From positions 1-37,784 of the IMG/VR virus record IMGVR_UViG_2529292883_000004: 37,784 bases of DNA. One strand, written 5' to 3'. The stretch comes from a virus. Taxonomy: Duplodnaviria > Heunggongvirae > Uroviricota > Caudoviricetes. Position 1 is the first letter of the stretch. Every line of letters begins with the position of its first letter. Position numbers and translations under genes: made by a program. This document shows, piece by piece, positions 961-23,039 of this stretch. Under the pieces are notes generated by a model that worked only from the letters and a program-made list of their open reading frames with translations, was not told the origin of the DNA and made no database searches.

Positions 961-1179
961 CACAACACGTATGAGGCGTGTTGTCGCACGTAAAAGTCTT
1001 AGATTTACTATTAAACCCATGCTTTTATACCCTAACGAATACTTGACAAGATTATCTCCATCTTGGTAGATAAACTTCAGAAGGTTTTTGACAAGTGGAT
1101 TTCTGTTCAGCAGGTCAATAAAGCTCTTCGCTATCATTAGTCAAATGTACAACATAACTGTCTAAATAACGGAGTACTC

Positions 1180-1967
1180 ATGAATTTTACGTTTACTGAC
1201 TCTGGATACACTGAAACAAATAAAAACAATCCCCCTATCATATTCGTTCATGGATTTTTCATGAATAATGAAATGTTCAAATACCAGTTTGACGAACTAA
1301 AAGAAAAACATAGAGTTGTTTGCATTAATGTTCGGGGTTTCGATGCCACCTCCGAAAAAACTGAGCCATTCTCGCTCTATGACATCGTTGATGACATTGT
1401 AAACGTCGCAGACTCACTACAACTGGATAAGTTTATTTTAGGGGGATGTCGATGGGGGGGTATATATCATTACGATTTGCCCTGTCACATCCAGAGCGTT
1501 TGTCAGGACTAATCCTTATGGCAACTCAGGTCGAGCAGGACCCGCCAGAAATTGCATCCAGTTATATGGAACTATGTAATGGATGGCATAACTCACTCAT
1601 AAAAGAAGAGATAATATCCTCATTATTACCCGTTTTCTTTGGAAAGAATATCTCTGAAGCAGAGATATGGAGACAAGTATGGCTACGTCATAAACCTGAA
1701 AACATCAAACCAGCTATGAATGCAATGCTGGAGCGAGACGATATTTCAGATAAAGTTCATACGATCAAAGCGCCCACACTGATTCTTCATGGATCCGTCG
1801 ATACAGGAATACCACCGGAGAAAGCTCTTGAAATGCACAAAATGATCCCGCACTCTGAGCTTGCGATTATACCTGACGCCAATCATGCATTGAATGTCAC
1901 TCATGCAAAAGAAGTAAATACCATAATAAAAAAATGGTTACAAAAACACACTGAGAGTCAAAGTTAA
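1180..1967 (+). pseudogene. Alpha/beta-hydrolase fold gene, frameshifted at a G-run
   Basis: Two overlapping ORFs (1180..1512 and 1446..1967) read as one hydrolase when joined: HGFFMNNEMF near the N-terminus and a nucleophile elbow GG-MSMGG (GxSxG) that straddles the frame break. The break sits at the G5 run 1441..1445, just 5' of ATG 1446. The region is visibly AT-rich. Confidence 0.6.
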
Positions 1968-2116
1968 CTCTTATATGTATAAATAGGTCATAAAAAATCA
2001 CGAAACGATAAATTAATAACAATACACAGGTATATACTTGATTCAAATATGCCTTTTGGTTAGTTTGTCTCTCCTGAAATCCTTTTATACTTATTTTATA
2101 TCGTACTTTGATATAA

Positions 2117-2143
2117 CCGGCATGAACCATGCCGGTTTTCTTT
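2117..2143 (+). terminator. Rho-independent terminator downstream of the hydrolase gene
   Basis: Hairpin ccggcatg-aac-catgccgg followed by ttttcttt on the plus strand. Confidence 0.6.
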
Positions 2144-2206
2144 AAACACGATGCTACAGTAGCCAATATTTTGTTTCACTGAAGCAAAAAAGCTTCTCAG
2201 TAGCCT

Positions 2207-3595: not shown

Positions 3596-6500
3596 TTAAA
3601 CCCAGACTGGATAACGCTCAGACAAGATGCTGAAATCGCTCAGGGATACGCAGTTATAAAACGCATCCGCGTAACTCGTCACGCCAGGCAACTTCTCAAT
3701 GAGCGCACATCCGCTTCCCTGCAATGACCGGCAGTTGTAAAAACAACGGTACACACTGGTTATTTGCGGGTACTCTTCCGCCGGGAGAATGTCATTCACA
3801 TCACTCTCCAGCCCTGTGCAACCGTAAAAGGTGCCCTCAAACGTCGTCGCACTGACGCACCCCGCAAACAAGCCGTCGCCCACAGTGGTCAGCCCCGTAC
3901 AACCGTTAAAGGTCTCTCTGAATGTTGTGACGCTGGCGAGTCCTGCAAACAGTCCGTCTGGTATCGTCATCAGCCCCGTGCAACCATCAAAGGTCTGATA
4001 GAACGATGTCACTCCGGTACAGTTTTCAAACAGCCCGGCAGGCAGCACCGCCAGCCCCGTACAGCCGTAAAAAGTCTGACTGAACGTGGTCACAGCAGTG
4101 TTGTTGTCAAACAACCCTTCCGGCAGTGTCTTCAGACCTGTACAGCCCCGGAACGTCCGGTAAAACGACGTCACACGGTTACAGTTATCAAACAATCCTG
4201 CAGGTAACATCGTCAGCCCCGTACAGCCGAAAAACGTATCCTGGAAAGACCCTGCGCTGACACAACGGTCAAATACCGCCTCAGGCACCGTCGTCAGGGC
4301 GGCACACCGGTAAAATGTCCGGTAGAAGGTTGTCACGCCGTGGCTGCTGTCAAACAGCCCTGCAGGTATTGCTGTCAGCTTCGTGCAGCCACTGAAAGTC
4401 TGATAGAACGACGTCACACCTGTACATCCGTCAAATACACTGTCTCCCAGCGTTGTCAGCTTCGTGCAGTCGTAAAATGTGCCTTCGAACGTCGATGCAC
4501 TGCTGCAGCCTGCAAACGCCCTTTCACCCACCGTTACCAGTTCCGTGCAGCCATAAAACGTCCGGAAGAAGGTCGTCACACGACTACAGTTTTCAAACAG
4601 CCCGGCAGGCAGCGCCTTCAGTCTCACACAGTCGCCAAAGGCATAACTGAACGTCGTCACAGAGACGCAGTTGTCAAACAGCCCTGCCGGTATCGCTGTC
4701 AGAGCCGTACAGCCATAAAAAGCACTACTGAACGTGGTCACGGCAGTGCAGCTGTCAAACATCCCTTCCGGCAATGCCGTCAGTCCCCTGCAGTTATAAA
4801 AAGCACTACTGAACGTCGTCACAGCAGTACAACCTGCAAACACTCCCTCTCCTATGGATGTCAGCCCCGTACAGCCGTAAAACGCCCGGTAGAACGTCGT
4901 AACACTGGTACATCCGGCAAACACGCCGTCTCCCACCGTTGTCAGCCCGGCACAACCATAAAAGGTGTCTTCAAACGTTGTGGCACTGACACAACCGGCA
5001 AACACATTGTCGCCCAGCGTTCTCAGCCCGGAACAACCGTAAAAGGTCCGCCTGAAGGTTGTCACACTTACACAGTCTGCAAACAATCCTGACGGTATCG
5101 CGGTCAGGCCCGTGCATTCGTAAAACGCCTCAAAGAAAGTGGTGACACTGGCGCTGTCAGCGAACAACCCTGCCGGTATCGTTGTCAGCCCCCGGCATCC
5201 CGAAAACACCCCCTCAAACGTCGTGGCACCGGTACAGTCTGCAAATAATCTGGCCGGTACCTCCGACAACCCGGTACATTCGCCAAAAGTCTTATAGAAA
5301 GACTTTGCTCCGGTACAACCGGAAAACAACTCTGCAGGAACTTCCGACAGACGGGTACAACGGTAAAATGTCGTATAGAACGTCGTGGCTCCGGTACAAT
5401 CTGCAAACAATTCCGGGGGGACCATTGCCAGTCCTGTACACCCCAAAAACGACCGGTAAAACGATCTGACACCCGAACAACCAGCAAACACGTCAGCCGG
5501 TATCGTGACCAGTCCGGTGCAACCTTCAAATAAGCTTGCGAATGTTGTGGTACCTGTACAACCAGCAAATACTCTGTCACCCACTGTTGTCAGTGCTCTG
5601 CACCCGTAAAACGCGCTGTCAAACGTCGTGACACTGGTGAGTTTTTCAAATAACCCTGCCGGTATCGTTACCAGCCCCGAGCATCCCGAAAACCCCCCCT
5701 CAAACGTCGCAACCTCTGTGCAGTTTGCGAACAATTTTGCCGGTATCGCTGTCAGGGCCGCGCAGCCATAAAACGTCCGGTTGAATGTCGTCACCCCGGT
5801 ACAACTGTCAAACAACCCTTCCGGTATTGCTGTCAGAGCCGTGCAGCCATAAAAGGCATTACTGAACGTGGTCACGGCAGTGCAGCTGTCAAACATCCCT
5901 TCCGGCAATGCCGTCAGTCCCCTGCAGTTATAAAAAGCCTGGAGGAATGTCGTCACCCCGGTGCAGTCTGCAAATATCCCCTGACCTAATGATGTCAGCG
6001 CCTGGCAGCCATAAAAGGCCTGCAAAAACGTTGTGGCACTGGCACATCCGGCAAACACGCTGTTACCCACCGTGCTCAGTTCCCTGCAGTTATAAAAGAC
6101 CCTGTAAAATGTTGTCGCACTGGTGCACCCGGCAAACACATGGTCCCCCACGGCGCTCAGTCCGGTACAACCATAAAAGGTATCCTCAAACGTCGTGGCA
6201 CCGGTGCACCCGGCAAACACGCTCTCACCCACCGCTCTCAGCCCGGTACAGCCGTAAAACGCCTGACGAAAAGTCGTTACGCCTGTGCAGCCGGCAAACG
6301 CGCTGTCACCGACTGCAGTGAGTCCCGTACATTCGTAAAATGCCTGATAGAACGTCGTGGCGCTGGCGCACTCAGCAAACAGCCCCGGAGGTATCGCAGT
6401 CAGTCCTTTACACCGGTAAAATGCACTGTCGAATGCCGTAGCGTTTTTGCAAAAACGGAATGCGCCGCTGTCAATACTCACCAGACTGGGGGTATTACTC

Positions 6501-7939
6501 GCAAGGTAGCTACAGGATTTTTGTCCCGCCGGAAGTTGACGTAGTCTGACCAGGTCGTTGTAAGCCGTGCTGCTGTACCCGTACACCCTGAACCTGACAC
6601 TCCCCGCCGTTCTCACCCTGATTGTCCGGAGCTCCCCGTCTGCCAGTGAGTCGGGTAACAGGATATTCGCCCAGCCCCCGCTGGTTGTCGTTTCAAGCTG
6701 GTCCGCAGCAACATATCCGTCGCCGAAGCTGACACGACAGTTCACCACATCAGCAACACTGACCAGCGCTTTTGACGATGAAGCACAGACCGAATCAAAA
6801 ACCGCCGGCACGTAACAGCTGACCTGTAATGTTGCCGTGTGTCCGCCGTCATTTGTCGTCACCGTCACCACCGCATCACCTTCGCTCACCCCGCACACGG
6901 TCAGTGAACTGTCGCTGTTGACCACCACCGACACCACGCTTTCATCGCTGACCGTCACAGTCCAGCTCCGGTCTTCAGCATTCTCCGGCCAGACATTCAC
7001 CGCAACCGCGACATGCTCATCATTATCAAGCTCCAGCTCAGTGACCGACAGGTTCACACCGCGCACACTCACGATTTTCCGCAGATTTATCACCTCACTG
7101 CGTACCGGTACTGTCACGTCATCCGGCATATCAACGGCAGCCTCTGCATACGCCGAATACCAGCCGTTCGCAAAATCATCATCCTCCATTTCATACGACC
7201 AGTGCCCTTCACTGTCCGTTGTCACTGTCGCCACATACCGCTGTCCCGACGCGGATTTGATGACAACATTCACCGTCCCCCCCGACACCACCACCCCCTC
7301 ATCTGCCGTGAGCGCACCGGAAAGAACGTGTGTGATGTTGTCCCACGCAATGCTCAGGGCGGCGCTGTACGATGACTGCCACTCAAACGTCACCAGCGTA
7401 TGCGCCGGGGCATAACGACGAAACAGGCACTCCAGGTACGCCCGTGAGGTGGTCACCTCATCCCCCGGCGGGGCCACCACCACGGTCCAGTTAAACCGGT
7501 TGTCGTCACTCAGCAGATGCCCGCTCCACGAAAATCCGCACAGTGGTGTGCGGTACTCACGGATAGTGATGCTGTACCCCATCGTCGCCGCAAGCTCCGT
7601 GAAATACGCCACACTCTGCCCGCCTGTCGACAGCAGTTTCGCCAGAATGAATTTTCTGGCCTGCGCCGGGTCTGTGGTGGATGCCTGCGTCCCGCATTCA
7701 TCATTCAGCCCCAGCGAGGCATACCACTCATCAGTGAGCGCATCCGCCGTTTCCGGGAAGGCGCCCGTTATCAGTGCGCACGCATCAGCGTCACTCTGCC
7801 GGTACGCCTGTGCCAGTCCGCGTATCAGCCTGTGCTGCACACTGTCAGGCAGACGGCTCCAGGCAATCCCTGACGGCAGAAGGTTCAGCATCGCGCGCGT
7901 GTAGTCATCATGTGAAAAACGACTCATCTTTTTCCTCAT
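3596..7939 (-). CDS. Giant baseplate-associated protein: Mu gp48/DUF2313-like N-terminal domain + Ig-like domain + ~30 x 27-aa Cys-containing LRR-like repeats
   Basis: 1447-aa ORF whose start overlaps the stop of the J-like gene (7936..7939). The N-terminal ~190 aa resemble Mu gp48-type baseplate proteins as recalled. An Ig-like stretch follows (VTVSDESVVSVVVNSDSSLTVCGVSEGDAVVTVTTNDGGHTATLQVSCY). Then a long array of 27-aa units with consensus about xVFAGCTGxTTFxxxFYGCTGLTxxGD, flavoured like BspA-type LRRs. Confidence 0.85.
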   Translation of the reverse strand: MRKKMSRFSHDDYTRAMLNLLPSGIAWSRLPDSVQHRLIRGLAQAYRQSDADACALITGAFPETADALTDEWYASLGLNDECGTQASTTDPAQARKFILAKLLSTGGQSVAYFTELAATMGYSITIREYRTPLCGFSWSGHLLSDDNRFNWTVVVAPPGDEVTTSRAYLECLFRRYAPAHTLVTFEWQSSYSAALSIAWDNITHVLSGALTADEGVVVSGGTVNVVIKSASGQRYVATVTTDSEGHWSYEMEDDDFANGWYSAYAEAAVDMPDDVTVPVRSEVINLRKIVSVRGVNLSVTELELDNDEHVAVAVNVWPENAEDRSWTVTVSDESVVSVVVNSDSSLTVCGVSEGDAVVTVTTNDGGHTATLQVSCYVPAVFDSVCASSSKALVSVADVVNCRVSFGDGYVAADQLETTTSGGWANILLPDSLADGELRTIRVRTAGSVRFRVYGYSSTAYNDLVRLRQLPAGQKSCSYLASNTPSLVSIDSGAFRFCKNATAFDSAFYRCKGLTAIPPGLFAECASATTFYQAFYECTGLTAVGDSAFAGCTGVTTFRQAFYGCTGLRAVGESVFAGCTGATTFEDTFYGCTGLSAVGDHVFAGCTSATTFYRVFYNCRELSTVGNSVFAGCASATTFLQAFYGCQALTSLGQGIFADCTGVTTFLQAFYNCRGLTALPEGMFDSCTAVTTFSNAFYGCTALTAIPEGLFDSCTGVTTFNRTFYGCAALTAIPAKLFANCTEVATFEGGFSGCSGLVTIPAGLFEKLTSVTTFDSAFYGCRALTTVGDRVFAGCTGTTTFASLFEGCTGLVTIPADVFAGCSGVRSFYRSFLGCTGLAMVPPELFADCTGATTFYTTFYRCTRLSEVPAELFSGCTGAKSFYKTFGECTGLSEVPARLFADCTGATTFEGVFSGCRGLTTIPAGLFADSASVTTFFEAFYECTGLTAIPSGLFADCVSVTTFRRTFYGCSGLRTLGDNVFAGCVSATTFEDTFYGCAGLTTVGDGVFAGCTSVTTFYRAFYGCTGLTSIGEGVFAGCTAVTTFSSAFYNCRGLTALPEGMFDSCTAVTTFSSAFYGCTALTAIPAGLFDNCVSVTTFSYAFGDCVRLKALPAGLFENCSRVTTFFRTFYGCTELVTVGERAFAGCSSASTFEGTFYDCTKLTTLGDSVFDGCTGVTSFYQTFSGCTKLTAIPAGLFDSSHGVTTFYRTFYRCAALTTVPEAVFDRCVSAGSFQDTFFGCTGLTMLPAGLFDNCNRVTSFYRTFRGCTGLKTLPEGLFDNNTAVTTFSQTFYGCTGLAVLPAGLFENCTGVTSFYQTFDGCTGLMTIPDGLFAGLASVTTFRETFNGCTGLTTVGDGLFAGCVSATTFEGTFYGCTGLESDVNDILPAEEYPQITSVYRCFYNCRSLQGSGCALIEKLPGVTSYADAFYNCVSLSDFSILSERYPVWV
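3784..6440. repeat. Imperfect tandem array of 81-bp coding repeats (about 30 units) inside the giant gene
   Basis: An 81-nt periodicity is visible in the DNA (recurring gtacagccgtaaaa-like cores) and as a 27-aa periodicity in the protein. Boundaries are approximate. Confidence 0.8.
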
Positions 7940-9090
7940 GTTGCCCAGGTTATCGTTCCGGTCACCGGCAGCTCTCCCTGCGACAGCGTGATGTTGCTGT
8001 CAGGAGACACCAGAATGAACCCGTCTGTCCCCTCTGTGTCCGCAATGGCGTACCAGAGGTCTGAAAGGTGAATCACCCCGCTGCCGTCCGGTTCACCCAC
8101 GTTGTACAGCACCTCGCTGATGGCACTCTCCACCCGTGCCTTCAGTGCCGCCGTGGCACTGCTCAGCCCCTGTATCTCAAAATCAATGCTTCTGGCCACC
8201 GGCGACATCACGTACACCACCGCTGTGACCGGCTGGTACTGCCGGATATGGTCCGCCACCGTCAGCTGCACCCCCGTGGCTTTCCGGTCCGTCCAGTCCT
8301 CATCCGTTGCCACCCCGTCCGTGCCGTCAGGAAAGCCCCCGGCGTTGTCTTCATCATCTCCGTCCGTCATGATGTAAACACCCACCGTCCCGAACCCCAG
8401 CGCACGGTTCACACACCATGCGCGGGTCACACCGGGAACTTCCAGCGCCCACTGCACATAGTCCGCCGCCGCCCCGCCCTGAGGCGGGTTCTGGTACGCA
8501 TACAGCACGCGCTGGCGGTACGCTTCCTCATCCTCAGTGTCACTGCCGCCGGTGGCGGCACTCACCATCGTCACCGTTGAGTCGATGCCTGACCAGGTGA
8601 CATCCGGTGTCAGGGTCGTTCCGGCATCCGCGTTACCGTCATCACCACCGCCGGTGCGGTCATCCGTCGGGTCCGGCAGCACCGCCGTGATACTCCCCGT
8701 GCCGCTGCCGTCACTGTCAATGCTCACATCCTCATCCAGCGTGTACTGATACCCGTCCGCACGGTTCAGCACCGCCTCCGCGCACACCGTGCTGCCCGGT
8801 GTGCCCGTAAAGCGCACCGCCTCACAGGTGGCCGCCACTGCTGCCCTGCGGATGATGCCCTTCAGTGCCCCCCACGCCGCCAGATACTCCCCGGTGGCCG
8901 TGGCCGGTGTGCACTGCTGCGCTATCCAGTCAAGATAGCCGTAATGCAGATGCGTCATGCCCGCCACGGCATCCGCCAGAATCCCCAGCGTGGAAAACCG
9001 TAGCAGGGCACCGGCCTCATCCAGCTGGCCGGTCACATACGACCGGCTTTTCTCACGCAGTTCGCTTAATCCGGGACGCTCAAACGGCAT
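7936..9090 (-). CDS. Baseplate J-like protein (Mu gp47-like)
   Basis: Start chosen at the ATG at 9090 (MPFERPGL...), which avoids overlap with the upstream gene whose stop is at 9092. Acidic Gly/Asp-rich middle; synteny between the gp46-like and gp48-like genes. Confidence 0.65.
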   Translation of the reverse strand: MPFERPGLSELREKSRSYVTGQLDEAGALLRFSTLGILADAVAGMTHLHYGYLDWIAQQCTPATATGEYLAAWGALKGIIRRAAVAATCEAVRFTGTPGSTVCAEAVLNRADGYQYTLDEDVSIDSDGSGTGSITAVLPDPTDDRTGGGDDGNADAGTTLTPDVTWSGIDSTVTMVSAATGGSDTEDEEAYRQRVLYAYQNPPQGGAAADYVQWALEVPGVTRAWCVNRALGFGTVGVYIMTDGDDEDNAGGFPDGTDGVATDEDWTDRKATGVQLTVADHIRQYQPVTAVVYVMSPVARSIDFEIQGLSSATAALKARVESAISEVLYNVGEPDGSGVIHLSDLWYAIADTEGTDGFILVSPDSNITLSQGELPVTGTITWAT

Positions 9091-9091
9091 C

Positions 9092-9529
9092 TCATACCTC
9101 CCACACCCGGTAAAATTTCTGGTATTCCGTCGTGTCCGCATCCGGACGCTGGTATGCAATGGTCATGTACAGCCGGTCCGGCGGCACTATCCACGCTTCC
9201 ACATCCAGCGAGGCCACCACGCCGTCATCCTTCAGCCACTGCAGCGCCTCCCGGGCGTATGCCTCCGCCTTAAGCGCCACCTGTGTGGTCAGTTTCTGCC
9301 TGCGCAGCAGCCACAGCCGGGAGCCGACCCGGTAGTCCTGCTCAAGGTCACCCCACCATCCGCGCCGGTTGCCGTCATCCGTCTCATCTGATGCATCCGC
9401 CAGCCTGTCCGTGAACAGGCTGATGAGAATGGCCGTCTGCAAATCATTTCCGCAGACAATGTCACCTGTGCCCACGGACCAGTCGCACCGCAGCACCTCT
9501 TCATCGTACAAAAGCGTGATATCGCTCAT
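9092..9529 (-). CDS. Baseplate protein, Mu gp46 / GPW-gp25-like
   Basis: 145 aa with size and position typical of the gp46 family between the spike (V) and J genes. Family recalled from memory. Confidence 0.6.
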   Translation of the reverse strand: MSDITLLYDEEVLRCDWSVGTGDIVCGNDLQTAILISLFTDRLADASDETDDGNRRGWWGDLEQDYRVGSRLWLLRRQKLTTQVALKAEAYAREALQWLKDDGVVASLDVEAWIVPPDRLYMTIAYQRPDADTTEYQKFYRVWEV

Positions 9530-9530
9530 C

Positions 9531-10112
9531 TCACACCGTCTCCGTGGTTGCCTGACTTGTCACCGCGCTGCCGCCGCTCTCCACACCGCTGACCGGGTGG
9601 GTGTGGATGTTGTATGCCTCCCGCAGCGCCTTCAGCGTGGTGCTGTTGGTTTCACAGTTGTCCGTGATATCCCCCGTCACCTTCAGCGACGGCGTTTCAA
9701 GGGTGACCCCGTCCGTCGCCGTCACCTTCAGCGTGGTGGCACTGTTCACCGTCACCGGCTGCCCGGCGGCCTCCACCACAATCCCGTCCTCACCCAGACG
9801 GACGAACTGCCCCCACTGGTTGTACACCACCACCTCACCGCTGCTCAGACCGTTAATCCGGTATGACTGATGGCCGGACGCCACCACCACCGCGCTGCTG
9901 CGGTTACCGGCAAGACTCAGTACCACCACATCCGTTCCGTCGGGCAGCACCGAGGAAAAACCAAACTGCTGAAGAACCGGCGTGTCGCTGCGTACCTCTG
10001 ACGGACTCTGCACCTGCACTGTCTGCACCACACCGCTGTCATCACCCGCCGTCACGCGCCCCACACTCAGCAGTGACACCAGACGGCGAAAAAGCACCTG
10101 TACAGGATTCAT
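9531..10112 (-). CDS. Baseplate assembly protein V / spike (Mu gp45-like)
   Basis: 193 aa, beta-rich, with position between the P-like and gp46-like genes; sequence is typical of gpV-like spikes. Confidence 0.6.
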   Translation of the reverse strand: MNPVQVLFRRLVSLLSVGRVTAGDDSGVVQTVQVQSPSEVRSDTPVLQQFGFSSVLPDGTDVVVLSLAGNRSSAVVVASGHQSYRINGLSSGEVVVYNQWGQFVRLGEDGIVVEAAGQPVTVNSATTLKVTATDGVTLETPSLKVTGDITDNCETNSTTLKALREAYNIHTHPVSGVESGGSAVTSQATTETV

Positions 10113-11197
10113 GACGACACATCCCTTCCGGCCACGCCGGAATAAAAACGGTACGGCTGCACGCTGAACGCCTCCGGCGGCATCAGGACCAGCGATGCCG
10201 TGGTCCCCGTCTCATCGTCACGGCTGAACGTCACCTCAGAGACCAGCCAGTTCAGACTGTCCGCCCTCAGTGCCGGTATGCTCACCGGCACAAAGGTGTT
10301 GGGCTGCCACAGCGCCCCCGCACTGTCACGCCAGCTGTCCACCGTCACATTCAGGGACACTGAACGCCCGTAGCGCCGGTTCATCTCCCAGTTCACCGCC
10401 TGCTGTGCGCACCCCGTCGTCATCAGCGTGCTCTCCACTATCGTCACGTGACGACGGGTGCGCATACTGACGGCTTCCGGGTCACGGGCCGTCGCCAGCA
10501 GCACGCTGTCATAACCGGATGCCGGTGACAGCTCGCTGAGGCTGTTTACCGACACCGACAGGCCGGTGTATTCCGAAAACCGTTCATTCATGCTTCGTGT
10601 GTACTCCGCCTTCTGCAGGTTCACCCCCTGCGTCACCCCGCTGGCTGCCGACGCCGTTCCTGCCCGCGTCAGGAACAGGCTGCCATCCGGCAGGTCGTAA
10701 TACAGCAGCCCCTCATACCGGCAGATGCGGTCGATGATTTGCTGCGACGACTCCCCCCAGTTGATGACAAAATCCGGCACCGTGGTGAAACTGTCGATGT
10801 CTGTCGTCACCGTGATGCCGTACACCGACGCCAGTTTTCTGATGATGGCCAGCGCATCGCCGCCCTTTATCATGTTGTTCTCCCACCAGGCTGCGCAGTC
10901 CACAAGGTCCTGGCACATTCCCCTGCCCGTCACCCGGATATCATGCGACTGCGGCGTCAGGGTGTTCACCCACTGGTCGACATAGCCGGTCATCACCCGG
11001 TCATCACCAATGGATATCGTGCAGCTGCTCCCCGGCGGGGCCAGCTGAAAGCCCTCCTGCGGATACCAGTCCGTCAGCGAAAGCTCAAAATCCGACGGCA
11101 GGCGCTCAATACCCCGCGTCACCCGGATATGGCTCCACCCCGACATGACGGTGTTGTTCACCTTCAGCGTCAGGGTGTCATCTGTGGTTGTACTCAT
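10109..11197 (-). CDS. Baseplate hub / tail protein (Mu P, gp44-like; P2 gpD-like)
   Basis: 362 aa, translationally coupled between the N-like and V-like genes. Assignment is mainly by synteny. Confidence 0.55.
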   Translation of the reverse strand: MSTTTDDTLTLKVNNTVMSGWSHIRVTRGIERLPSDFELSLTDWYPQEGFQLAPPGSSCTISIGDDRVMTGYVDQWVNTLTPQSHDIRVTGRGMCQDLVDCAAWWENNMIKGGDALAIIRKLASVYGITVTTDIDSFTTVPDFVINWGESSQQIIDRICRYEGLLYYDLPDGSLFLTRAGTASAASGVTQGVNLQKAEYTRSMNERFSEYTGLSVSVNSLSELSPASGYDSVLLATARDPEAVSMRTRRHVTIVESTLMTTGCAQQAVNWEMNRRYGRSVSLNVTVDSWRDSAGALWQPNTFVPVSIPALRADSLNWLVSEVTFSRDDETGTTASLVLMPPEAFSVQPYRFYSGVAGRDVSS

Positions 11198-12600
11198 GTG
11201 TTTCTCGCTGTGAAGGAAAGCGGCATGAACGCCGGATGGACGGGAGAGACCGCCTGTACCAGCTCGTCCGCACGCGCGGCGTCCTGATACAGCCGGTTTG
11301 CCAGCGCCAGCGACGGCTGCGGTGAGCGGCTGGTCACCTTCATCACCTCCTGTTGTGACAGATAATTCGTCTGCCAGTGGGTGACAAACTGCGTGTACTG
11401 CGCATTCAGCGCGTCATAACTGTCGTCATCCGTACGGTCAGCCAGTAACAGCAGGACGGTTTCCGTCACCGTGCGGGCTTTCCGCATCACCAACACCGCG
11501 TCGTCGTGACCACGGGGGGAATACTGCATCAGCCGCCACAGCATCGCTCCGGCCCCCAGTGTGCGGATAAGGGCCTGCACCGCCGCAGAGATGGCATTTG
11601 CCGCCTCCCCTTCGTAATACTTCCCGTCTTCCGCCGACGCAATCTCTGCCATGACGCGGATTTTCTCCGTGTCGCTGCCCGTGGCCTCCGCCAGAGTGAT
11701 AATGACCGCCTGTATCGCGGACACTGCACCGGACACGGATGTGATATCCTCCAGCACCGCTGTCGCCGACTCCGCCGCCGACCGGTCCTGCACGGAGCAG
11801 GCCTGAATGGTTTCCAGGATACTGTCATCATCCGCATCCGTGGTGGCAAGCCACGTTGAAAGCGACGAGGCCGTGCTGCCCGACGGCGTGTCACTGCCCC
11901 GACAGTAACGCCCGTAACTGTCCGGGGCATACAGTGATGACACCGTGCTGGTCATGCTGGTCACCGATGTCACCGCCCGCGAAAATATCGTCTTCCACGC
12001 GCTCACCGTGCTCTTTATCGTTTTTACCGCGCCGGTGACACTGTTCATCTCACCGGTAATCGCCGCCAGCGTCACGGTGGCCGTTGTGGTCAGCGTCTGA
12101 TACCACGTCTCCGATGACGTGGAGGTTGTCCCCGTCACCAGCGAAAACGCTTTTTCCCCTGACTCAATGACCGTGAGCGTGAACGAAAACACACGCCCGG
12201 ACTCCACGCCCTCCTCAATACGCAGCCCGCCGTCCGGGACATACACCGTCATCTCACCCAGAGTCGGATGGACCAGCAGACCTCCGCCGGATGTTTCACA
12301 GGCCGCCACCAGGGCATCCCGCTGACTGAACACATCCCCCGCGCTGTACACCAGACTGTCCTGTATCAGGAACCCGCGCAGTGTGAACTTCCGGGTGGCG
12401 CGCCCCAGGTCTTCCACCCAGACCGTATCGCGGTACGGGTATTCATGCACCGCCACCCGGCGACCATACACCCCCTCTCCGGCAATCACGCCGAACGGCA
12501 CGCCACAAAATGACGCCTGGTGAATATGCGACTGCCACTCCCACCCGCCGGAGGAAGACAGCCCCAGGGCGGATGACACCGCGTCTGTGATAATGCCCAT
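11194..12600 (-). CDS. DNA circularization protein N (Mu gp43-like) tail protein
   Basis: Start chosen at the ATG at 12600 (MGIITDAVS...) with a GAGGAG RBS 6 nt upstream; the ORF-track start at 12618 is that RBS itself. N-terminal region resembles the Mu N family as recalled. Confidence 0.65.
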   Translation of the reverse strand: MGIITDAVSSALGLSSSGGWEWQSHIHQASFCGVPFGVIAGEGVYGRRVAVHEYPYRDTVWVEDLGRATRKFTLRGFLIQDSLVYSAGDVFSQRDALVAACETSGGGLLVHPTLGEMTVYVPDGGLRIEEGVESGRVFSFTLTVIESGEKAFSLVTGTTSTSSETWYQTLTTTATVTLAAITGEMNSVTGAVKTIKSTVSAWKTIFSRAVTSVTSMTSTVSSLYAPDSYGRYCRGSDTPSGSTASSLSTWLATTDADDDSILETIQACSVQDRSAAESATAVLEDITSVSGAVSAIQAVIITLAEATGSDTEKIRVMAEIASAEDGKYYEGEAANAISAAVQALIRTLGAGAMLWRLMQYSPRGHDDAVLVMRKARTVTETVLLLLADRTDDDSYDALNAQYTQFVTHWQTNYLSQQEVMKVTSRSPQPSLALANRLYQDAARADELVQAVSPVHPAFMPLSFTARNT

Positions 12601-12610
12601 CTTCTGCTCC

Positions 12611-14569
12611 TCACACATTCATCGCCGTGACCACCGCGCCCCCCTTCACCGTCCGGCGGGTTGTCTGCCCCGTGGCGGTGTTGGTGACGTTAATGTCCAG
12701 CCGGATTTTGTTTTCGCTGAAACCGCGACTGATTTCATCCCGCACGTCAGTCCCTGAACTGCCGGACTGCGGCATGATGATGCTGCCGCCGGATACCTGC
12801 GACATGTACCTGAACACCTTCGGCGAGTAGGTCTGTGTCTCCTGTGGCATCCCCTTCTGTCCGCGAAGCCAGGCGCTCATATTGCCTTCGCCCCAGTTGT
12901 AAGCCTGAAAGGCGCGCTGCATATCACCACCATACTGCGCCATCAGCCCCGCCAGTTTTCTGGCCGCTGCCTCCGAGGCCCGGTAAGGGTTGAATACATC
13001 CATACCGGAAAGGCCATACTCCCGGGCCGTCGGGTCAATGAACTGAAACATCCCCTTTGCCGTGCCGTAACGGGTGAGCGGCCCGACAGCATCCGCCCGC
13101 CCGGAAGACTCCGTCATGGCCAGACCGTACAGCGTGTTTTCCGGCAGGTTGTACTGCTTCTCCAGCGCCGCAAAATGCGCCCGCAGTTCAGGGGTGATAT
13201 CACGACCACCGGCACCGTTTTTTTGTGGTGACGTGACCTGTGACAGGGCCGGAGACACCATAACTTTCGACAGATCGTCATTCAGCATCGTGGTAAGCGC
13301 ATTCAGTCTGTCGGACCGCTGACCGGACAGACGCGTGTGCATCTCCAGGAGATCTGATGTCGCGATATTGTTATCGAGATTGTATCTTTGCCGGGACGTC
13401 AGTGATTTCAGTTGCTCCGGATGGGCATACAGATAACCGCGCAGCTCTGACAGACGGTCACCCGTTTTCTGCTGACTGCTGCGCTGACCGGTCAGGACAT
13501 CGGTCGCCCAGTCCACGGAGGCGGTGACAGCATCACTGCCCAGTACCTTCGCCTTCATCCTGCCGGTGAAACCATCCCACGCGGCTGACAGACGGTTCAG
13601 GTTGCTGTTGGCCTGAACCAGCTTCGCATTCAGACTGTCCGGCATCGACAGCCCCAGACGATCGGACTCCGCCAGCGCCGCATTCAGGTTTTTCGTTCCC
13701 CGCAGCAGCGCCAGTTGTGCATCCGACAGCCCCAGCGCGTCCGCCACCACCTTCTGCGACGAACTGTTCAGTCGCCCGAAGGCATCAATCAGGTTCTGCG
13801 TGCTCTTTTCCAGGTTCACCGTGTGGTCGCTGTTCTCCGCCAGCTTCACACCAAACTGGTTAAGAATGCCCGTGACCTCCGGTGAACGGGTGTTCAGCGC
13901 ATCGTTCAGTGTCGTGAACAATGCACCGGTCTCCGCCTGTGCCTGATCTGCCGACAGGCCCATCAGACGGAACACCCCGGCAAAGCGGCTGAACGCACTC
14001 ACGCTCATTCCGGCGTTCCTTGCGTTCACATCCAGGCTGTATGCCGCTTTCGAAGCATCATAAAGATTACTGACGACCGCCTTCACCGCCATGCCACCGC
14101 CAGCGACCGCAAGCCCCGCAAGACCTCCGCGCCCCAGCGCACTGAACAGCTCTGATGACAGTGCCCCGACATTGCGCAGCGGCGGCACAATATCCCCGAA
14201 ATGCTGTGACGTGTCCTTCCCCAGCCGGGACAGCCGTTCAAAATATCCGGACATCCTGTCCGCATTCTCCTGACTCTCCCTTCCCAGCACCCTGTTACCC
14301 GCCCTGTCTGTGGCCAGCAGCGCGTTCATCAGTAGCGTAACCGAATCGTGGATCTGCGTTATCTTCCCGCCCAGCGCATCCGCCGCACCGGATGCCCCCT
14401 TCAGGGGCATTTCATTTACCGCATCAAGCCCGTCACACAGTTCTGACACGCAGGCCGCCGCCTGCCCTGCGCGACCTGCCAGCGAACCGGCAGCCTCTGA
14501 GGCTCTCAGTAAAAGCGCATCCGCGTTACCCTTTGCATTCAGCTCAAAAACAAAAGCATTACCCGCCAT
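12611..14569 (-). CDS. Tail tape measure protein with C-terminal lytic transglycosylase (SLT) domain
   Basis: Long Ala/Leu/Gly-rich helical protein. The C-terminal part carries an SLT-like signature (GLAMTESSGRADAVGPLTRYGTAKGMFQF...AYNWGEGN). ATG at 14569 has a GAGGAG RBS 5 nt upstream; the ORF-track start is a GTG at 14575. Confidence 0.8.
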   Translation of the reverse strand: MAGNAFVFELNAKGNADALLLRASEAAGSLAGRAGQAAACVSELCDGLDAVNEMPLKGASGAADALGGKITQIHDSVTLLMNALLATDRAGNRVLGRESQENADRMSGYFERLSRLGKDTSQHFGDIVPPLRNVGALSSELFSALGRGGLAGLAVAGGGMAVKAVVSNLYDASKAAYSLDVNARNAGMSVSAFSRFAGVFRLMGLSADQAQAETGALFTTLNDALNTRSPEVTGILNQFGVKLAENSDHTVNLEKSTQNLIDAFGRLNSSSQKVVADALGLSDAQLALLRGTKNLNAALAESDRLGLSMPDSLNAKLVQANSNLNRLSAAWDGFTGRMKAKVLGSDAVTASVDWATDVLTGQRSSQQKTGDRLSELRGYLYAHPEQLKSLTSRQRYNLDNNIATSDLLEMHTRLSGQRSDRLNALTTMLNDDLSKVMVSPALSQVTSPQKNGAGGRDITPELRAHFAALEKQYNLPENTLYGLAMTESSGRADAVGPLTRYGTAKGMFQFIDPTAREYGLSGMDVFNPYRASEAAARKLAGLMAQYGGDMQRAFQAYNWGEGNMSAWLRGQKGMPQETQTYSPKVFRYMSQVSGGSIIMPQSGSSGTDVRDEISRGFSENKIRLDINVTNTATGQTTRRTVKGGAVVTAMNV

Positions 14570-14722
14570 CGCCACTCCTCAGCCTGTTGATCCGCTCTGC
14601 CTGCGACGACCACCAGAGAATTTCCCCTGACGTCAGCCCCCACGCCTCGCGCGGGGACCAGTGAAAGAACCACGTCAGTTCAGCCGCCCTCGCCTGCCAC
14701 TGGCTCAGGCCTCCAGGAAAAA
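14559..14722 (-). other. Putative -1 programmed frameshift site (T TTT TTC) and ~60-codon extension of the chaperone (GT-like product)
   Basis: The minus-strand heptamer T-TTT-TTC (plus coordinates 14716..14722) lies in the chaperone zero frame (ggt ttt ttc). The -1 frame then stays open for about 60 codons (FFPGGLSQWQARAAELTWFFHWSPREAWGLTSGEILWWSSQAERINRLRSGDGG) and stops at 14559..14561, overlapping the tape measure start. Confidence 0.6.
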
Positions 14723-14986
14723 ACCCGTCAGGAACCGCTCACACTTTTTGTAATCGGACACCGCCATGAATTTCAGCGGGGCAGACGGCACGCCCGCCAC
14801 TGCCGCAATCAGCTCACGCATGGCCGCCATTGCGCCCAGTGAGGCGGTATTGCGGTGAAAGTCCTCCGCCTGGAACAGCACCGGCTCTTTCAGGCGAAGC
14901 TCACGGAACTCCGTCCTGGTATCCGGATCCCTTACCGGACGCTTCAGGGTCACCACCAGTTCTTCGGTCTGTTTCTCATTCATCAT
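14705..14986 (-). CDS. Tail assembly chaperone (G-like; Mu gp41-like)
   Basis: 93-aa ORF immediately upstream of the tape measure gene. Carries a canonical slippery heptamer near its 3' end (see next feature). Confidence 0.7.
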   Translation of the reverse strand: MMNEKQTEELVVTLKRPVRDPDTRTEFRELRLKEPVLFQAEDFHRNTASLGAMAAMRELIAAVAGVPSAPLKFMAVSDYKKCERFLTGFFLEA

Positions 14987-15354
14987 CAGCTCTCCGTCAC
15001 TTCCTGCCCTTCAAAACGGGCCGTAAAGGTTGCATCGTTGTTGTCTGTCTCAATCCGGCCAGTCAGCCACATGTTCTGACCGAGAATGGTCTTGCCGTTC
15101 ACCAGATAGGCCGCCACCGTCACATCCGTATATGCCGCAAAATCCTTCAGTGACAGTGAGCCGGAATCACGCACCGTCATCTCGATAAACGGCGCTTTGT
15201 ACGACTCCTTAAAGCCATGTATGCCGCTCATCCCCGTGAGCGTTTCACGCTCGATTTCACCCACGGAATATCTGAACGTTCCGGCCACATTGACCGACAC
15301 GCCGTCAATCGTCACGGTACAGGTGCCCGCTAACGCGTTCTGACTCATCATCAT
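14986..15354 (-). CDS. Tail tube protein (Mu gp40/M-like)
   Basis: 122 aa, immediately downstream of the sheath gene; size and position typical for a myovirus tube protein. Confidence 0.65.
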   Translation of the reverse strand: MMMSQNALAGTCTVTIDGVSVNVAGTFRYSVGEIERETLTGMSGIHGFKESYKAPFIEMTVRDSGSLSLKDFAAYTDVTVAAYLVNGKTILGQNMWLTGRIETDNNDATFTARFEGQEVTES

Positions 15355-15390
15355 CTCCCGTAAAAAAGCCGCCCGCAGGCGGCATCATGG

Positions 15391-16893
15391 TTAATCGCTG
15401 CGGCTGTTCAGCCTGAACTGGTTCAGCACCGCAAAGATGCGTAACTGGTTCATCAGGCGGCCCGGCCACACCACGTTCACGCGGTTCGGGTTGTCACTGT
15501 CACGCTCAACCACCACCTGCTCCGCAAACGCATCCGCATTCTGCACGTAGCCGTTGCTCGCCAGCGTCCGGAACCGGGCGATCAGCTCAGCACGAATAAT
15601 CGCAGGTGTGGCTATCGCAGCCCCTGCCGGAATATTCGCGTCGTCATCTGCCAGCTTCATCCGTCCAAACTTCGAGGTCACCTGTGTGCGCATGTCGCGG
15701 CATACATACATCAGCGTGTACATCGTCTCGATCTGCAGGTAGCTGTCGTCTGCCGCACCGTATCGGTTGGTCTGGTACGTGGTGATGGTATTCTCAAGCG
15801 TCACCGTATCGTCGTCCGACACCGTGAAGGTTGAGATACCGCTGTAGAGAAGCGTGTTCCGCTCCGTCAGGGTGAAACGGCTTGCCAGCGGCGGGGCCAG
15901 CACACCGGATACCGGCAGCGTCTGGGTGGGTCTCGCCGGATCGTTGCGGACCGACTGCGCCAGCGCCCCCACCATCGCGGCGGCATAGTCATATGAGGTG
16001 TTCGGACCGTCATACACGCCCCAGAGTGTCATGTGCTGGTCGTTGCGGCGCTCTCCCTTGTCTGCCAGCTCGCCATAGCTGCCGTTTGCCGCCGTGAAGG
16101 CATGGCCGTAAATTTGTTTGTCCCACGCCCAGCGACCTTCGTCATCCGACAGAAAATCCTTCATGTCGTTGAGCGATGTGGTGTCGGAATACGCCAGGAC
16201 AATGAAATCAAACGTGCGGTCGCCCAGAGAGGCGAGCGCATCCGCAAGGTCCGGCGCACCCTCCCCGCCACTCATCGCCGTGATGGTCAGCGTCAGGCCG
16301 TCCGGGGTGGACTCGCCGCCGGATGACCCGAGATAGTTCAGCCGGATATCAATGGTGTTTCCCGTCTCACCGGCATTTCTGGCCGTAAGCTCAACGGTCG
16401 TGCCATCACGGGGCACGGAGGCCGTCACCGGCAGCCCGGAGGTGGCGTTGATTCTGTCTGCCAGCAGACTGGCAATCTCTGCCCGCGTGTACGCTGGCTT
16501 CACCGTCAGGCGCACGCGGGTGCCTGCGATGTACAGGTAAATGATGCCGGATGCCGTCGACACACTGTCAACAGATATACTGCCTGTGGCCGTCGTCATG
16601 CTGCTGTCATCATCTGCCAGCGGCAGCAGCCAGGTCTCTCCGTAGCTGTCATTTTTAAGGTAGGCCATCAGCATGGTATGCAGCATGGAGCCTTCCCCGC
16701 ACAGCCCGGCAGCCATGGAGGCCGATGAACAGCGGTATGCCGTCCCTGCCGTGGCCGTTCCCGCAGCCGTCATCTGACCAATCAGCAGGGTGCGCTGCGT
16801 CTCCGTGGCGCTGTTCGCCATTGAGTTGTCCACTTCAACATAGAACAGTGGCACACGGAGATTTGACGGGATATTGCTGAACGATACCGTCAT
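15391..16893 (-). CDS. Tail sheath protein (Mu gp39/L-like)
   Basis: 500 aa with an N-terminal MTVSFSNIPSNLRVPLFYVEVDNS-type motif as in contractile tail sheaths; followed by tube and chaperone. Confidence 0.8.
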   Translation of the reverse strand: MTVSFSNIPSNLRVPLFYVEVDNSMANSATETQRTLLIGQMTAAGTATAGTAYRCSSASMAAGLCGEGSMLHTMLMAYLKNDSYGETWLLPLADDDSSMTTATGSISVDSVSTASGIIYLYIAGTRVRLTVKPAYTRAEIASLLADRINATSGLPVTASVPRDGTTVELTARNAGETGNTIDIRLNYLGSSGGESTPDGLTLTITAMSGGEGAPDLADALASLGDRTFDFIVLAYSDTTSLNDMKDFLSDDEGRWAWDKQIYGHAFTAANGSYGELADKGERRNDQHMTLWGVYDGPNTSYDYAAAMVGALAQSVRNDPARPTQTLPVSGVLAPPLASRFTLTERNTLLYSGISTFTVSDDDTVTLENTITTYQTNRYGAADDSYLQIETMYTLMYVCRDMRTQVTSKFGRMKLADDDANIPAGAAIATPAIIRAELIARFRTLASNGYVQNADAFAEQVVVERDSDNPNRVNVVWPGRLMNQLRIFAVLNQFRLNSRSD

Positions 16894-17126
16894 GCATCAC
16901 CCCCTTTCGCCGTGCTGGCAGACGTGCTGCCTGTTGCTGTCGTGGACGCGGTCACTTTGCCGGTGGCTGCCGTGGTGGCCCTGTCAGCCAGTACCACATC
17001 CCCCTGCTTCAGGCGGCGTCGCCAGAACAAATCACGATCCGGCACCTCCGCCCCCTCATCAGGCAGCAGACGTGACGGGTCGCCGGGGTAGCGCACCCTG
17101 CGCCCCGGTACAGGTTTCACAAACAT
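16890..17126 (-). CDS. Mu gp38-like small virion protein (DUF2635-like)
   Basis: Start chosen at the ATG at 17126 (MFVKPVPGRRVRYPGDP...) with an AGGAG RBS 7 nt upstream. The MFVKP...DLFWRRRLKQGDVV pattern resembles the family as recalled. Confidence 0.5.
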   Translation of the reverse strand: MFVKPVPGRRVRYPGDPSRLLPDEGAEVPDRDLFWRRRLKQGDVVLADRATTAATGKVTASTTATGSTSASTAKGGDA

Positions 17127-17139
17127 GGAATTTCTCCTG

Positions 17140-17703
17140 TCAGGTTTCACTGCCGGTTTCATCACCGGCAGACAAATCAAAATGCAGGCGGAATGACGGA
17201 TACACGCCGCGCACGTTCACCTCACGCAGCGGGACAATCTCAGACGGGAAGAAATCCTCCGGCCCCTGGTAGTACTCCAGATCCAGCTCCAGCACCACAA
17301 TACCGGTGTGCGCTTCACCGTCGGAATCCACGCCGATATGCGACCGGATCCTGCTGATTTGCTGAAACTTCATGCGGACGTCCGGATTACCGATGACGGC
17401 ACGCTCTATCGCCTCCTTCATCGCCTCCGCCTCTTCCCACGCCACGCCTGCTGCGTTTTCCGTCTCGTCCCCGCTGTCATACGCCAGCACGCGACCGTCG
17501 ATACGCAGGGTCGTGGTGGTGGTGAACTGCGGCACATGCCGCCCCTGTGACACCTTGTGTTCGGACTGCACGGACACAATGATGAGCGGGTACTGGTCCG
17601 GCATCACCGGCAGGGTGCGCGGGGAATACACCCGACCGCCAAAACCGGAACAGTCGTTCAGTGCCCGGGTGACAATTTTTCTGGCTTCTGCGGTATTCAT
17701 CAC
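17140..17703 (-). CDS. Tail completion / Mu gp37-like protein
   Basis: 187-aa ORF between the FII-like gene and the sheath module. Assignment by synteny only. Confidence 0.4.
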   Translation of the reverse strand: MMNTAEARKIVTRALNDCSGFGGRVYSPRTLPVMPDQYPLIIVSVQSEHKVSQGRHVPQFTTTTTLRIDGRVLAYDSGDETENAAGVAWEEAEAMKEAIERAVIGNPDVRMKFQQISRIRSHIGVDSDGEAHTGIVVLELDLEYYQGPEDFFPSEIVPLREVNVRGVYPSFRLHFDLSAGDETGSET

Positions 17704-18035
17704 TTCACCCTGTTCAGTTCAAGTCGCGTGCCGCCGTGGCTGTCCGGTTGCACATCCCGCACGATATACAGCTCCCCCGTGCGCACGATGAGGAAAATAT
17801 CGCCCTGCTTCGGCTTCACGCGACACGCCGCATCCCGCACGCCCAGCACGGGCAGCGTGGAGTTTGATTCCGTGCCCCCGTCCTCGCCGACAAGCTGCTG
17901 CGTGTACGCCCGGTCAAAAATCCCCGTCAGCCGGTACACCTCACCGCCACGCGGGCGGTGTTCGCATTCCTCACCAAACACCCCGAACAACGGGGACAGC
18001 AGGTTTTTGTCCCAGTCAACCGGTCCGGTCATCAC
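17700..18035 (-). CDS. Head-tail joining protein (lambda gpFII-like)
   Basis: 111 aa; the C-terminal part (QGDIFLIVRTGELYIVRDVQPDSHGG) parallels lambda FII (RGDTLTIGEENFWVDRVSPDDGG) as recalled. Confidence 0.6.
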   Translation of the reverse strand: MMTGPVDWDKNLLSPLFGVFGEECEHRPRGGEVYRLTGIFDRAYTQQLVGEDGGTESNSTLPVLGVRDAACRVKPKQGDIFLIVRTGELYIVRDVQPDSHGGTRLELNRVK

Positions 18036-18201
18036 CCTTCATCTCCGCCAGTGGAACAATCACCCCCAGACGCAGAAGACGCTGCGCCTCGCTTTCGCTC
18101 AGGGTGATCACATTACCCTGCGCCACCCGTTGTCCGTTGTGCTGCACACAACCGCGCAGCACAACATAGTCAACCGGCGCGCCCTTTTTGCCGGACGCCA
18201 T
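18016..18201 (-). CDS. Small hypothetical head-completion protein
   Basis: 61-aa ORF from the ATG at 18201 (MASGKKGAPVDYVVL...), directly after the capsid gene stop, with a GGTGGTG-type RBS. Function unknown. Confidence 0.4.
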   Translation of the reverse strand: MASGKKGAPVDYVVLRGCVQHNGQRVAQGNVITLSESEAQRLLRLGVIVPLAEMKGDDRTG

Positions 18202-18202
18202 C

Positions 18203-19258: not shown

Positions 19259-19313
19259 AAAAATCCCATAAAAAAAGCCGCATCATGCGGCTGTCAGGCT
19301 GTCAGAGGGGAGA

Positions 19314-19715
19314 TCACGGTACCGTGACCGGATTGCGCAGAAAGATTTTCTCTTTCTCCAGCGCCACGCTCAGATCATCAATGTCCCAGCTTTCATCAAA
19401 AATCACCCGGTTTGCGTTGAACTCACCCATCAGGTAGACACCGGCCAGCACATCACCGGACGAGGCATCCGCCATGTCCGCCAGAATCGCCACCGGCGTT
19501 TCGCTGCCGTCCGTCACGCCTGCCCCCTGCTTGCAGAGGGTGTACGCCCCACTTTCCGTGATGCGCCCCAGCACCGTACCGCGCTGATACACCTCGCCAC
19601 CAGTGATGGTCACAGTTTTTGTGACCACCTGAAGCGGTCCGCACAGCAGCTGGTCCGGCTGGTATGCACCGGACCAGTAACCCGGTACCGACGGGTTGTT
19701 TCCGTATGTGCTCAT
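19314..19715 (-). CDS. Head decoration protein (lambda gpD-like)
   Basis: 133 aa between the scaffold and capsid genes; the ...VAILADMADASSGDVLAGVY... pattern resembles the gpD family as recalled. Confidence 0.7.
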   Translation of the reverse strand: MSTYGNNPSVPGYWSGAYQPDQLLCGPLQVVTKTVTITGGEVYQRGTVLGRITESGAYTLCKQGAGVTDGSETPVAILADMADASSGDVLAGVYLMGEFNANRVIFDESWDIDDLSVALEKEKIFLRNPVTVP

Positions 19716-22783: not shown

Positions 22784-22791
22784 CGCTCACC

Positions 22792-23013
22792 TCAGTAACG
22801 CACGCTCAGAGACCTTCTCGTCCTTATCCCCAGCGCCCGCTGGAGCGTCGCGATCAGCGCCAGCAAATCCGCACTGCTGGCCTGTGAATAAGTCACGGTG
22901 CGCGTGCCGTCCCCCTGTGCATAGGAGAAACTCACGCCACGCCGCCCTGAAAGCAGCTCAATATAGGCCGCCTGAGCTTCATTCAGTGCCGCCTTCAGTT
23001 GTTCTTTTGACAT
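22792..23013 (-). CDS. Head-tail joining protein W-like
   Basis: Starts at the internal ATG (MSKEQLKAALNEAQAAYIELLSG...); about 73 aa, resembling lambda gpW in size and helix pattern, directly after the large terminase gene. Confidence 0.6.
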   Translation of the reverse strand: MSKEQLKAALNEAQAAYIELLSGRRGVSFSYAQGDGTRTVTYSQASSADLLALIATLQRALGIRTRRSLSVRY

Positions 23014-23039
23014 TCCGGCAAACACGCCGGGGGTATTCA

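Follow-up and report, generated by a model that had tools for sequence, protein, structure and literature searches.

An alpha/beta hydrolase gene in a tailed-phage genome (IMG/VR record IMGVR_UViG_2529292883_000004, Caudoviricetes) is interrupted at a run of G residues where its nucleophile elbow should be encoded. Such a lesion raises the question of whether the gene is a recent pseudogene, a slippage-prone gene that switches phase, or an intact gene misread through a homopolymer sequencing error, three options that a preliminary description, made from the sequence alone, had left side by side. In the analysis reported here, which covers the whole 37,784-nucleotide stretch (the window) and its relatives in Escherichia coli, the first two options are favored together and the third is argued against. 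The allele in the window most likely owes its frameshift to a real and recent slippage event in a hypermutable pair of poly-G runs, and would represent a reversible null of a prophage esterase moron.

Two overlapping open reading frames in different frames make up the two halves of one 262-aa alpha/beta hydrolase. The features of the interrupted gene are as follows:

1180-1512, plus strand: N-terminal fragment ORF of 110 aa, of which residues 1-89 are hydrolase sequence
1446-1967, plus strand: C-terminal hydrolase part of 173 aa, with its stop codon at 1965-1967
1441-1445, plus strand: poly-G tract 1, G5 here and G6 in intact alleles, coding for Gly88-Gly89 before the nucleophile
1454-1460, plus strand: poly-G tract 2, G7, coding for Gly93-Gly94 after the nucleophile serine
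1449-1451, plus strand: catalytic codon TCG (Ser91), in the C-terminal part
1800-1802, plus strand: catalytic codon GAT (Asp208), in the C-terminal part
1884-1886, plus strand: catalytic codon CAT (His236), in the C-terminal part

The order of the sequence around the lesion is ...TTTATTTTA GGGGG ATGTCGAT GGGGGGG TATATA..., and positions 1426-1470 are spelled out as GATAAGTTTATTTTA-GGGGG-ATGTCGAT-GGGGGGG-TATATATCA. The N-terminal fragment contains the HG oxyanion motif as residues 24-25; past the G5 run it is out of frame and reads CRWGGIYHYDLPCHIQSVCQD until its stop. The frame of 1446-1967 joins the N-terminal part only when 1 nt is added at tract 1, the site of a 1-nt deletion in this window. 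As had been recognized at the outset, a single additional G in the run at 1441-1445 rejoins the halves: in silico repair yields a 789-nt ORF of 262 codons with the elbow LGGMSMGGY restored, the product reading ...KFILGGMSMGGYISLRFA... around it. The preliminary description gave tract 1 alone, and the G7 run at 1454-1460 was absent from it. The AT-rich character that it attributed to the gene was borne out, with 39.3% GC in the hydrolase gene against 54.6% in the whole window and 52-63% in the neighboring tail genes. Twin G runs are not expected by chance in a gene of this composition, as a pair of G runs, each 5 nt or longer and together inside 20 nt, occurred in 0.0001 of mononucleotide shuffles of the hydrolase gene and any G run of at least 7 in 0.006 of them.

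The repaired protein is a member of the alpha/beta-hydrolase fold that lies outside every curated enzyme family. Pfam Abhydrolase_1 (PF00561) matches it with E = 1.1e-27 (97.7 bits; gathering cut-off 25.8) over profile positions 1-244 of 245, and each actual fragment in the window covers part of this domain only. It possesses the G-x-S-x-G elbow and a Ser-Asp-His triad, and in a 27-homologue alignment G89, S91, G93, G94, D208 and H236 are invariant, with H24 and G25 nearly so; in the actual window sequence this elbow does not share the frame of the N-terminal part. An AlphaFold2 model (pLDDT 92.7, pTM 0.92) displays the canonical core with a helical cap at approximately residues 123-184, and Foldseek aligned it to the Thermogutta esterase 4UHD with E = 8.7e-25, a TM score of 0.89 and an rmsd of 2.1. 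The closest solved relatives are the structures of this Thermogutta terrifontis esterase, TtEst (4UHC/4UHD; sequence E = 1.9e-36, about 30% identity), followed by aryl esterases, a feruloyl esterase and enol-lactonases. The protein resembles TtEst in its fold, helical cap, elbow (LGG-x-S-M-GGY) and Ser-Asp-His triad, and differs from it in its prophage moron context. PHROGs labels the hydrolase as an esterase/lipase. A specific enzyme assignment did not emerge, since all NCBIfam equivalogs considered (PcaD, BioH, RutD, MenH and the macrolide esterases EstT/EstX) scored far under their cut-offs, for example 108.6 versus 255.85 for PcaD, 91.4 versus 206.95 for BioH and 69 versus 420 for macro_16_ester, and the fold search returned generic esterases and lactonases only. 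The absence of an N-terminal signal-like segment in the hydrolase sequence points to a cytoplasmic location, and the protein is probably a cytoplasmic short-chain carboxylesterase or lactonase-like enzyme, so that esterase chemistry would be expected of the ON protein. A role in a defense system was also considered and is unsupported, the hydrolase having matched none of the PADLOC defense-system models at E <= 0.01.

Errors in 454 and nanopore data classically fall in homopolymers, and the G5 run could in principle be a sequencing or assembly error in a strain that is truly G6 and carries an intact gene. In keeping with this, the exact allele of the window is known in G5 form only, and its repaired 262-aa version is absent from a collection of 15 billion proteins. 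However, 4512 nt of the window recur without a difference in OU349842.1, a 5.19-Mb chromosome, and the same 110-aa product occurs on two contigs, OU349842.1 and a second, shorter one. The 110-aa fragment is also an exact protein match to EHO02167.1 of E. coli E101, which probably comes from this second G5 contig. The presence of G5 in two assemblies makes a sequencing error unlikely. In addition, the long ORFs of the window (1447, 659, 654 and 546 aa) are unbroken, which indicates that homopolymer errors are not rife in the assembly, and complete genomes, Sanger-finished ones among them, show real variation at the run. Taken with these observations, an artifact at the run is quite improbable.

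Comparison with intact orthologs gave a direct view of this variation. Tract 1 is G6 and the gene intact in the complete genomes of PapM-36-2, C8 and ST2350; in those of E24377A and DS26-1 it is G8, and the gene, broken as it is at G5 in the window, is annotated as two CDSs. Further lengths were read in finished genomes, namely G7 in UGEL01000003 and OZ039621 and G5 in OU349842.1. To survey the run lengths more widely, the truncated product expected for each tract length was derived and searched as an exact sequence in the 15-billion-protein collection, after which the encoding contigs were fetched and the tract lengths read in DNA. The states recovered, given as tract 1-tract 2, are listed below.

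5-7: 2 contigs; the state of the window, OFF; read in fetched DNA
6-7: 42 contigs for protein P0001; ON; read in fetched DNA
7-7: 48 + 2 + 2 contigs; read in fetched DNA
8-7: 42 + 41 contigs; read in fetched DNA
9-7: 4 + 1 contigs; in frame with one extra Gly; read in fetched DNA, and recovered in a second background by exact protein look-up after being predicted
10-8: 6 contigs; read in fetched DNA
9-8-7: 3-4 contigs; a 16-nt tandem duplication of ATGTCGAT+G8 between the runs; read in fetched DNA
6-6: 21 contigs; predicted first, then found by exact protein look-up
6-8: 3 contigs; predicted first, then found by exact protein look-up
8-6: 1 + 2 contigs; predicted first, then found by exact protein look-up
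7-8: 1 contig; predicted first, then found by exact protein look-up
10-7: 1 contig; predicted first, then found by exact protein look-up
7-6: 1 contig; predicted first, then found by exact protein look-up

At least 13 tract configurations thus exist among near-identical alleles, with tract 1 ranging from G5 to G10 (G5, G6, G7, G8, G9 and G10 all being found in related E. coli assemblies), tract 2 from G6 to G8, and one form carrying the 16-nt duplication; the contigs counted cannot be taken as independent isolates, and the singleton states 7-8, 10-7, 8-6 and 7-6 come from short-read assemblies and may be assembly errors. Length heterogeneity, which the preliminary description had proposed to look for, is present among these relatives. 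The 16-nt duplication is templated by tracts 1 and 2 together. States 4-7, 11-7, 9-8, 9-6, 8-8, 5-8, 12-7, 3-7, 11-8 and 9-10 were looked up by protein and not found. A 23-mer spanning the tract was absent from the species-representative genomes scanned, and a scan of metagenomes with it returned one contig, which was already known; the IMG/VR carriers are four contigs, two of them 8-7 and two C8-type.

Lengths of G5, G7, G8 and G10 at tract 1 lead to a truncated protein, and G6 and G9 to read-through. Both the frame and the serine are kept by 6-7 and 9-7 only, and most sampled carriers are OFF. In the main background the ON share is about 46 of about 173 contigs (again non-independent isolates), and a neutral walk expects about one third. 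Restoration of the frame does not always restore the elbow: the 7-6 allele WP_097427319.1 (P0073) encodes 262 aa in a restored frame in which GMSMG has become GDVDG, without the serine, and RefSeq labels it an intact alpha/beta fold hydrolase. A nonsense allele of the hydrolase (P0037) was found on 11 contigs. RefSeq presents the halves in E24377A and DS26-1 as two 'alpha/beta fold hydrolase' genes with no pseudogene flag.

The course of events proposed for the window is as follows. The all-GGG glycines around the serine write the elbow as two runs, G6-ATGTCGAT-G7 when intact, and strand slippage during replication would add or remove bases within them. Tract 1 of the window has most likely lost one G in this way, giving G5. 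Ribosomes would then leave the frame at codon 90, just before the serine, and read 21 unrelated codons before a stop. The 173-codon remainder could start at an ATG directly after the run, ahead of which no Shine-Dalgarno was seen in the sequence; it misses strands one to four as well as the oxyanion HG, and is expected to be inactive. The G5 allele would accordingly be a heritable null (OFF), and one +1 slip would restore ON; a comparable return to frame, from 8-7 to 9-7, appears to have taken place in related lineages. Loss of function is likely in the OFF alleles generally.

A full-length enzyme could also be produced from the G5 allele by recoding, through either programmed -1 ribosomal frameshifting or transcriptional slippage. 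Exactly LGGMSMGG would result if the ribosome slipped by -1 on A-GGG-GGA, and the long runs of relatives (G8-G10) could permit some polymerase slippage. Known transcriptional slippage involves runs of at least 9 A or T. The heptamer here is preceded by A and so is not a canonical X-XXY-YYZ site, and no conserved stimulatory structure was seen on reading the sequence. Recoding is rejected because the G6 orthologues are already in frame and because the shift required varies by allele, being -1 for G5 and G8 and +1 for G7 and G10; its probability is accordingly minimal.

If the G5 state is a genuine slippage product, as is preferred here, the pace of such events relative to ordinary substitution becomes the next issue. 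When the runs were repaired in silico, 71 loci collapsed into 16 nucleotide haplotypes of the hydrolase gene, and the commonest 789-nt haplotype, identical elsewhere, carries six states (6-7, 6-6, 7-7, 8-7, 9-7 and 9-8-7). Nearly all OFF alleles, once repaired in the same way, encode the exact ON protein and contain no secondary lesions, which implies that the OFF alleles are young; since the whole region is too young, the secondary-lesion test cannot separate decay from switching. The flank comparison took in 3200 nt to the left but only 640 nt to the right, where IS insertions and rearranged tail genes made wider stretches unusable. Different tract states occur in pairs of loci that are separated by 0-2 substitutions across 3812 ungapped flanking columns:

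L025 (8-7) versus L042, L043 and L045 (9-7)
L032 (6-7) versus L060 (6-6)
L044 (9-7) versus L052 (9-8-7)
L065 (7-7) versus L071 and L077 (8-7)

Fitch parsimony on a neighbor-joining tree of 58 loci, sampled by state with up to 10 per state, counted 21 tract-state changes (minimum 7; shuffled mean 35), a rough figure given that the flank tree is affected by recombination, with 354 substitution steps on 214 variable sites among the 3812 columns. The same tree has 11 ON/OFF changes, and events at the tract site are approximately 200 times those per ordinary nucleotide. Tract lengths change much faster than point substitutions accumulate, and in effect mutation turns the locus ON and OFF like a switch. 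Tract states nevertheless largely follow clades, so switching is too slow to randomise them inside a lineage, which speaks against a very high rate and suggests a moderate one.

Whether this switching has been selected is a separate question. Under a selected contingency locus, the synonymous GGG codons would allow lysogens to switch the esterase stochastically and reversibly at high frequency, as a form of bet-hedging. Codon choice is one argument for it: 4 of the 12 glycine codons of the hydrolase are GGG, all of them flanking the serine within the elbow, and the other eight are GGA or GGT. The pure runs are synonymous differences from sister alleles, in which the first Gly pair is GGGGGA, GGTGGA or GGGGGG and the second is GGCGGA, or is spelled GGGAGGG in C8 and ST2350. 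Seven fetched alleles, in six tract spellings, have one or both runs interrupted, and each of them is annotated intact. Mononucleotide runs of at least 5 nt are indel hot spots in E. coli, with 8-bp G:C runs as rare outliers (PMC8510543), and the intactness of the interrupted-run alleles fits this known length-dependence of slippage. Selection for switching would also agree with the appearance, in two or more backgrounds, of in-frame 9-7 out of OFF 8-7, the otherwise perfect ORF retained by OFF alleles, and the appreciable frequency of both ON and OFF.

Several observations nevertheless weigh against a selected switch. The intact state is only G6/G7, which is short for high-rate switching in mismatch-repair-proficient E. 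coli, the states are clade-consistent, and the ON fraction approximates the neutral-walk value. There are an in-frame allele without the serine and an allele with a nonsense mutation, as well as an IS insertion next to the gene; the gene has no known phenotype, no PADLOC match and no obvious surface-exposed or phage-facing role; and four GGG codons could be a matter of chance in one lineage. A selected contingency locus is consequently regarded as rather unlikely. Weak selection on the gene is suggested by the serine-less in-frame allele, the nonsense allele and the ON share near one third, and the analysis leans towards switching as an unselected by-product of the runs under such weak selection.

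The surroundings of the gene bear on what kind of element is being switched. The structural genes of the prophage (tail fiber assembly, tail fibers, baseplate, sheath, major head, portal and terminase) all lie on the minus strand, so the earlier statement that the hydrolase is opposite to the prophage genes holds for these; it does not extend to the ORF6N anti-repressor-like gene at 1-561 on the plus strand (PHROG 2379, 2.6e-93), which shares the hydrolase strand. The ORF6N protein has a weak match to the PADLOC candidate PDC-S05 only. A short degenerate second ORF6N copy lies at about 748-950 and corresponds to a frameshifted ORF6N fragment in the annotation of relatives. The nearest loci are E. 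coli prophages inside ompW, adjoining trpA-yciGFE, in the order ompW remnant, ORF6N gene, ORF6N fragment, hydrolase, convergent tail-fiber-assembly gene, tail fiber and a leucine-rich-repeat tail protein of about 1450 aa.

More distant alleles (84-89% nucleotide identity) occupy the same relative place at the tail-fiber end, convergent with the tail-fiber-assembly gene, in prophages integrated at icd, zinT, prfC, dusA and bioA/ybhB; these loci (L006-L010) belong to E. coli FHI_NMBU_03, APEC O1, 16F5M1D1, 2015C-4136CT1 and A25. Six integration sites, in different prophages, thus carry the hydrolase module, and the cassette is a moron, that is, a self-contained and horizontally shuffled accessory gene. 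In some of L006-L010 a 40-aa ORF annotated as 'ferredoxin' is located upstream of the cassette. Similar to other morons at tail-fiber ends, it is AT-rich, has its own promoter-like region and terminator, and runs opposite to the late genes, and, as in prophage morons, it sits between a tail-fiber-assembly gene and the attachment site. Unlike known lysogenic-conversion genes, it has no assigned host phenotype and no defense-model match.

The putative signals that accompany the gene are listed below.

1043-1072, plus strand: putative sigma-70 promoter, with -35 TTGACA at 1043-1048, an 18-nt spacer and an extended -10
1064-1072, plus strand: extended -10 of the putative promoter, TGg at 1064-1066 and TAGATA at 1067-1072, read from the sequence
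1171-1174, plus strand: Shine-Dalgarno GGAG, 5 nt ahead of the ATG at 1180, kept in all aligned alleles
2115-2147, plus strand: intrinsic terminator, with a stem-loop at 2115-2137 and the T-rich tail TTTCTTT

The block at 1043-1072 probably acts as the hydrolase promoter. It is proposed on the basis of conservation and direct reading of the sequence: the block does not vary among 7 alleles that share just 84-89% identity in their coding regions, and among these the 200 nt upstream of the hydrolase ATG (window 980-1180) are on average about 93% identical, which suggests a conserved regulatory region that may move with the gene. A consensus promoter scan reported nothing upstream of the hydrolase, having missed 1043-1072 since the -10 hexamer lacks T at its sixth position. 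A second TTGACA occurs at 1087-1092 within the conserved upstream region. The terminator had been placed at 2117..2143 in the preliminary description; it is real, with a minimum free energy of -16.8 kcal/mol for the RNA and z = -6.2 against shuffles, although those coordinates were slightly off. Its hairpin has a 10-bp stem with 6 G-C pairs and a 3-nt loop, and it lies about 150 nt past the stop codon of the hydrolase, in the interval where this gene and the tail-fiber-assembly gene converge. A terminator-like hairpin is also present at 962-984 on the minus strand, flanked by the ORF6N fragment on one side and the promoter region of the hydrolase on the other.

The structural module (8000-24000) has 59-63% GC, the left early/regulatory part (26000-37784) 47-50% and the accessory end 33-44%, and the prophage is a compositional mosaic; a search against a phage collection matched the lysis region only (phiP27, about 90%). 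An IS element of the Transposase_mut family is inserted about 120 nt past the hydrolase stop in L044, L052 and L053, and takes the place of the tail-fiber-assembly gene region in some 9-7 and 9-8-7 lineages. The 1447-aa tail protein (3596-7939, minus strand) contains many FY-x-C-x-x-L leucine-rich repeats, and the Pfam records for the copies in relatives list a Mu Gp48-like N-terminus, Big_2 and LRR_5 repeats. Its size is 1065, 1442, 1443 or 1470 aa among otherwise near-identical prophages, which suggests repeat-number variation in a receptor-binding protein.

Homopolymeric-tract phase variation has been described for the poly-G contingency genes (phasome) of Campylobacter jejuni (PMC6321876) and for the 7C tract of Mycobacterium tuberculosis glpK (10.1101/717272). 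As in these systems, a G/C run lies in the coding region, indels of +/-1 shift the frame, ON and OFF forms coexist naturally, lengths outpace substitutions, and the frame can be restored (8-7 to 9-7). The present locus differs from them in its E. coli host, its short ON-state runs (G6 and G7) and the arrangement of two adjacent runs flanking a catalytic serine, and unlike the poly-G contingency genes it encodes a putative cytoplasmic prophage esterase rather than a surface-modifying or restriction-modification gene. It shares a run of at least 5 nt, a null frameshift and the lack of further lesions with ordinary E. coli homopolymer hot spots and young pseudogenes (PMC8510543), but is set apart from ordinary hot spots by 13 states at one site, six of them on one haplotype, and by a run-templated duplication. 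An in-frame tract, frame switching and ON/OFF polymorphism among close relatives are features of SSR phase variation; they are sequence-level features, on which the locus is described as a candidate and not classed as an established phase-variable gene.

Phase variation in E. coli is usually described in terms of inversion and methylation switches rather than repeat slippage, and, to our knowledge, few repeat-driven switches are known in this species. A literature search for this hydrolase locus found no description of it. The most informative outcome of the analysis is the natural hypervariability of the twin poly-G site that encodes the catalytic elbow, which provides a natural and well-documented coding poly-G pair with at least 13 length states and with ON and OFF both common. 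It also carries a lesson for annotation, in that split halves are called separate genes and a serine-less, frame-restored allele is called intact. Should the switching be only neutral decay, the gene would be an ordinary young pseudogene at a mutational hot spot. If it were instead a true contingency locus, it would imply a bet-hedging advantage for phage or host, for example in phage-phage conflict or in gut ester/lactone metabolism. If experiments confirm the switching, the locus would offer a tractable system for studying homopolymer slippage under natural conditions and the role of a widespread prophage esterase.
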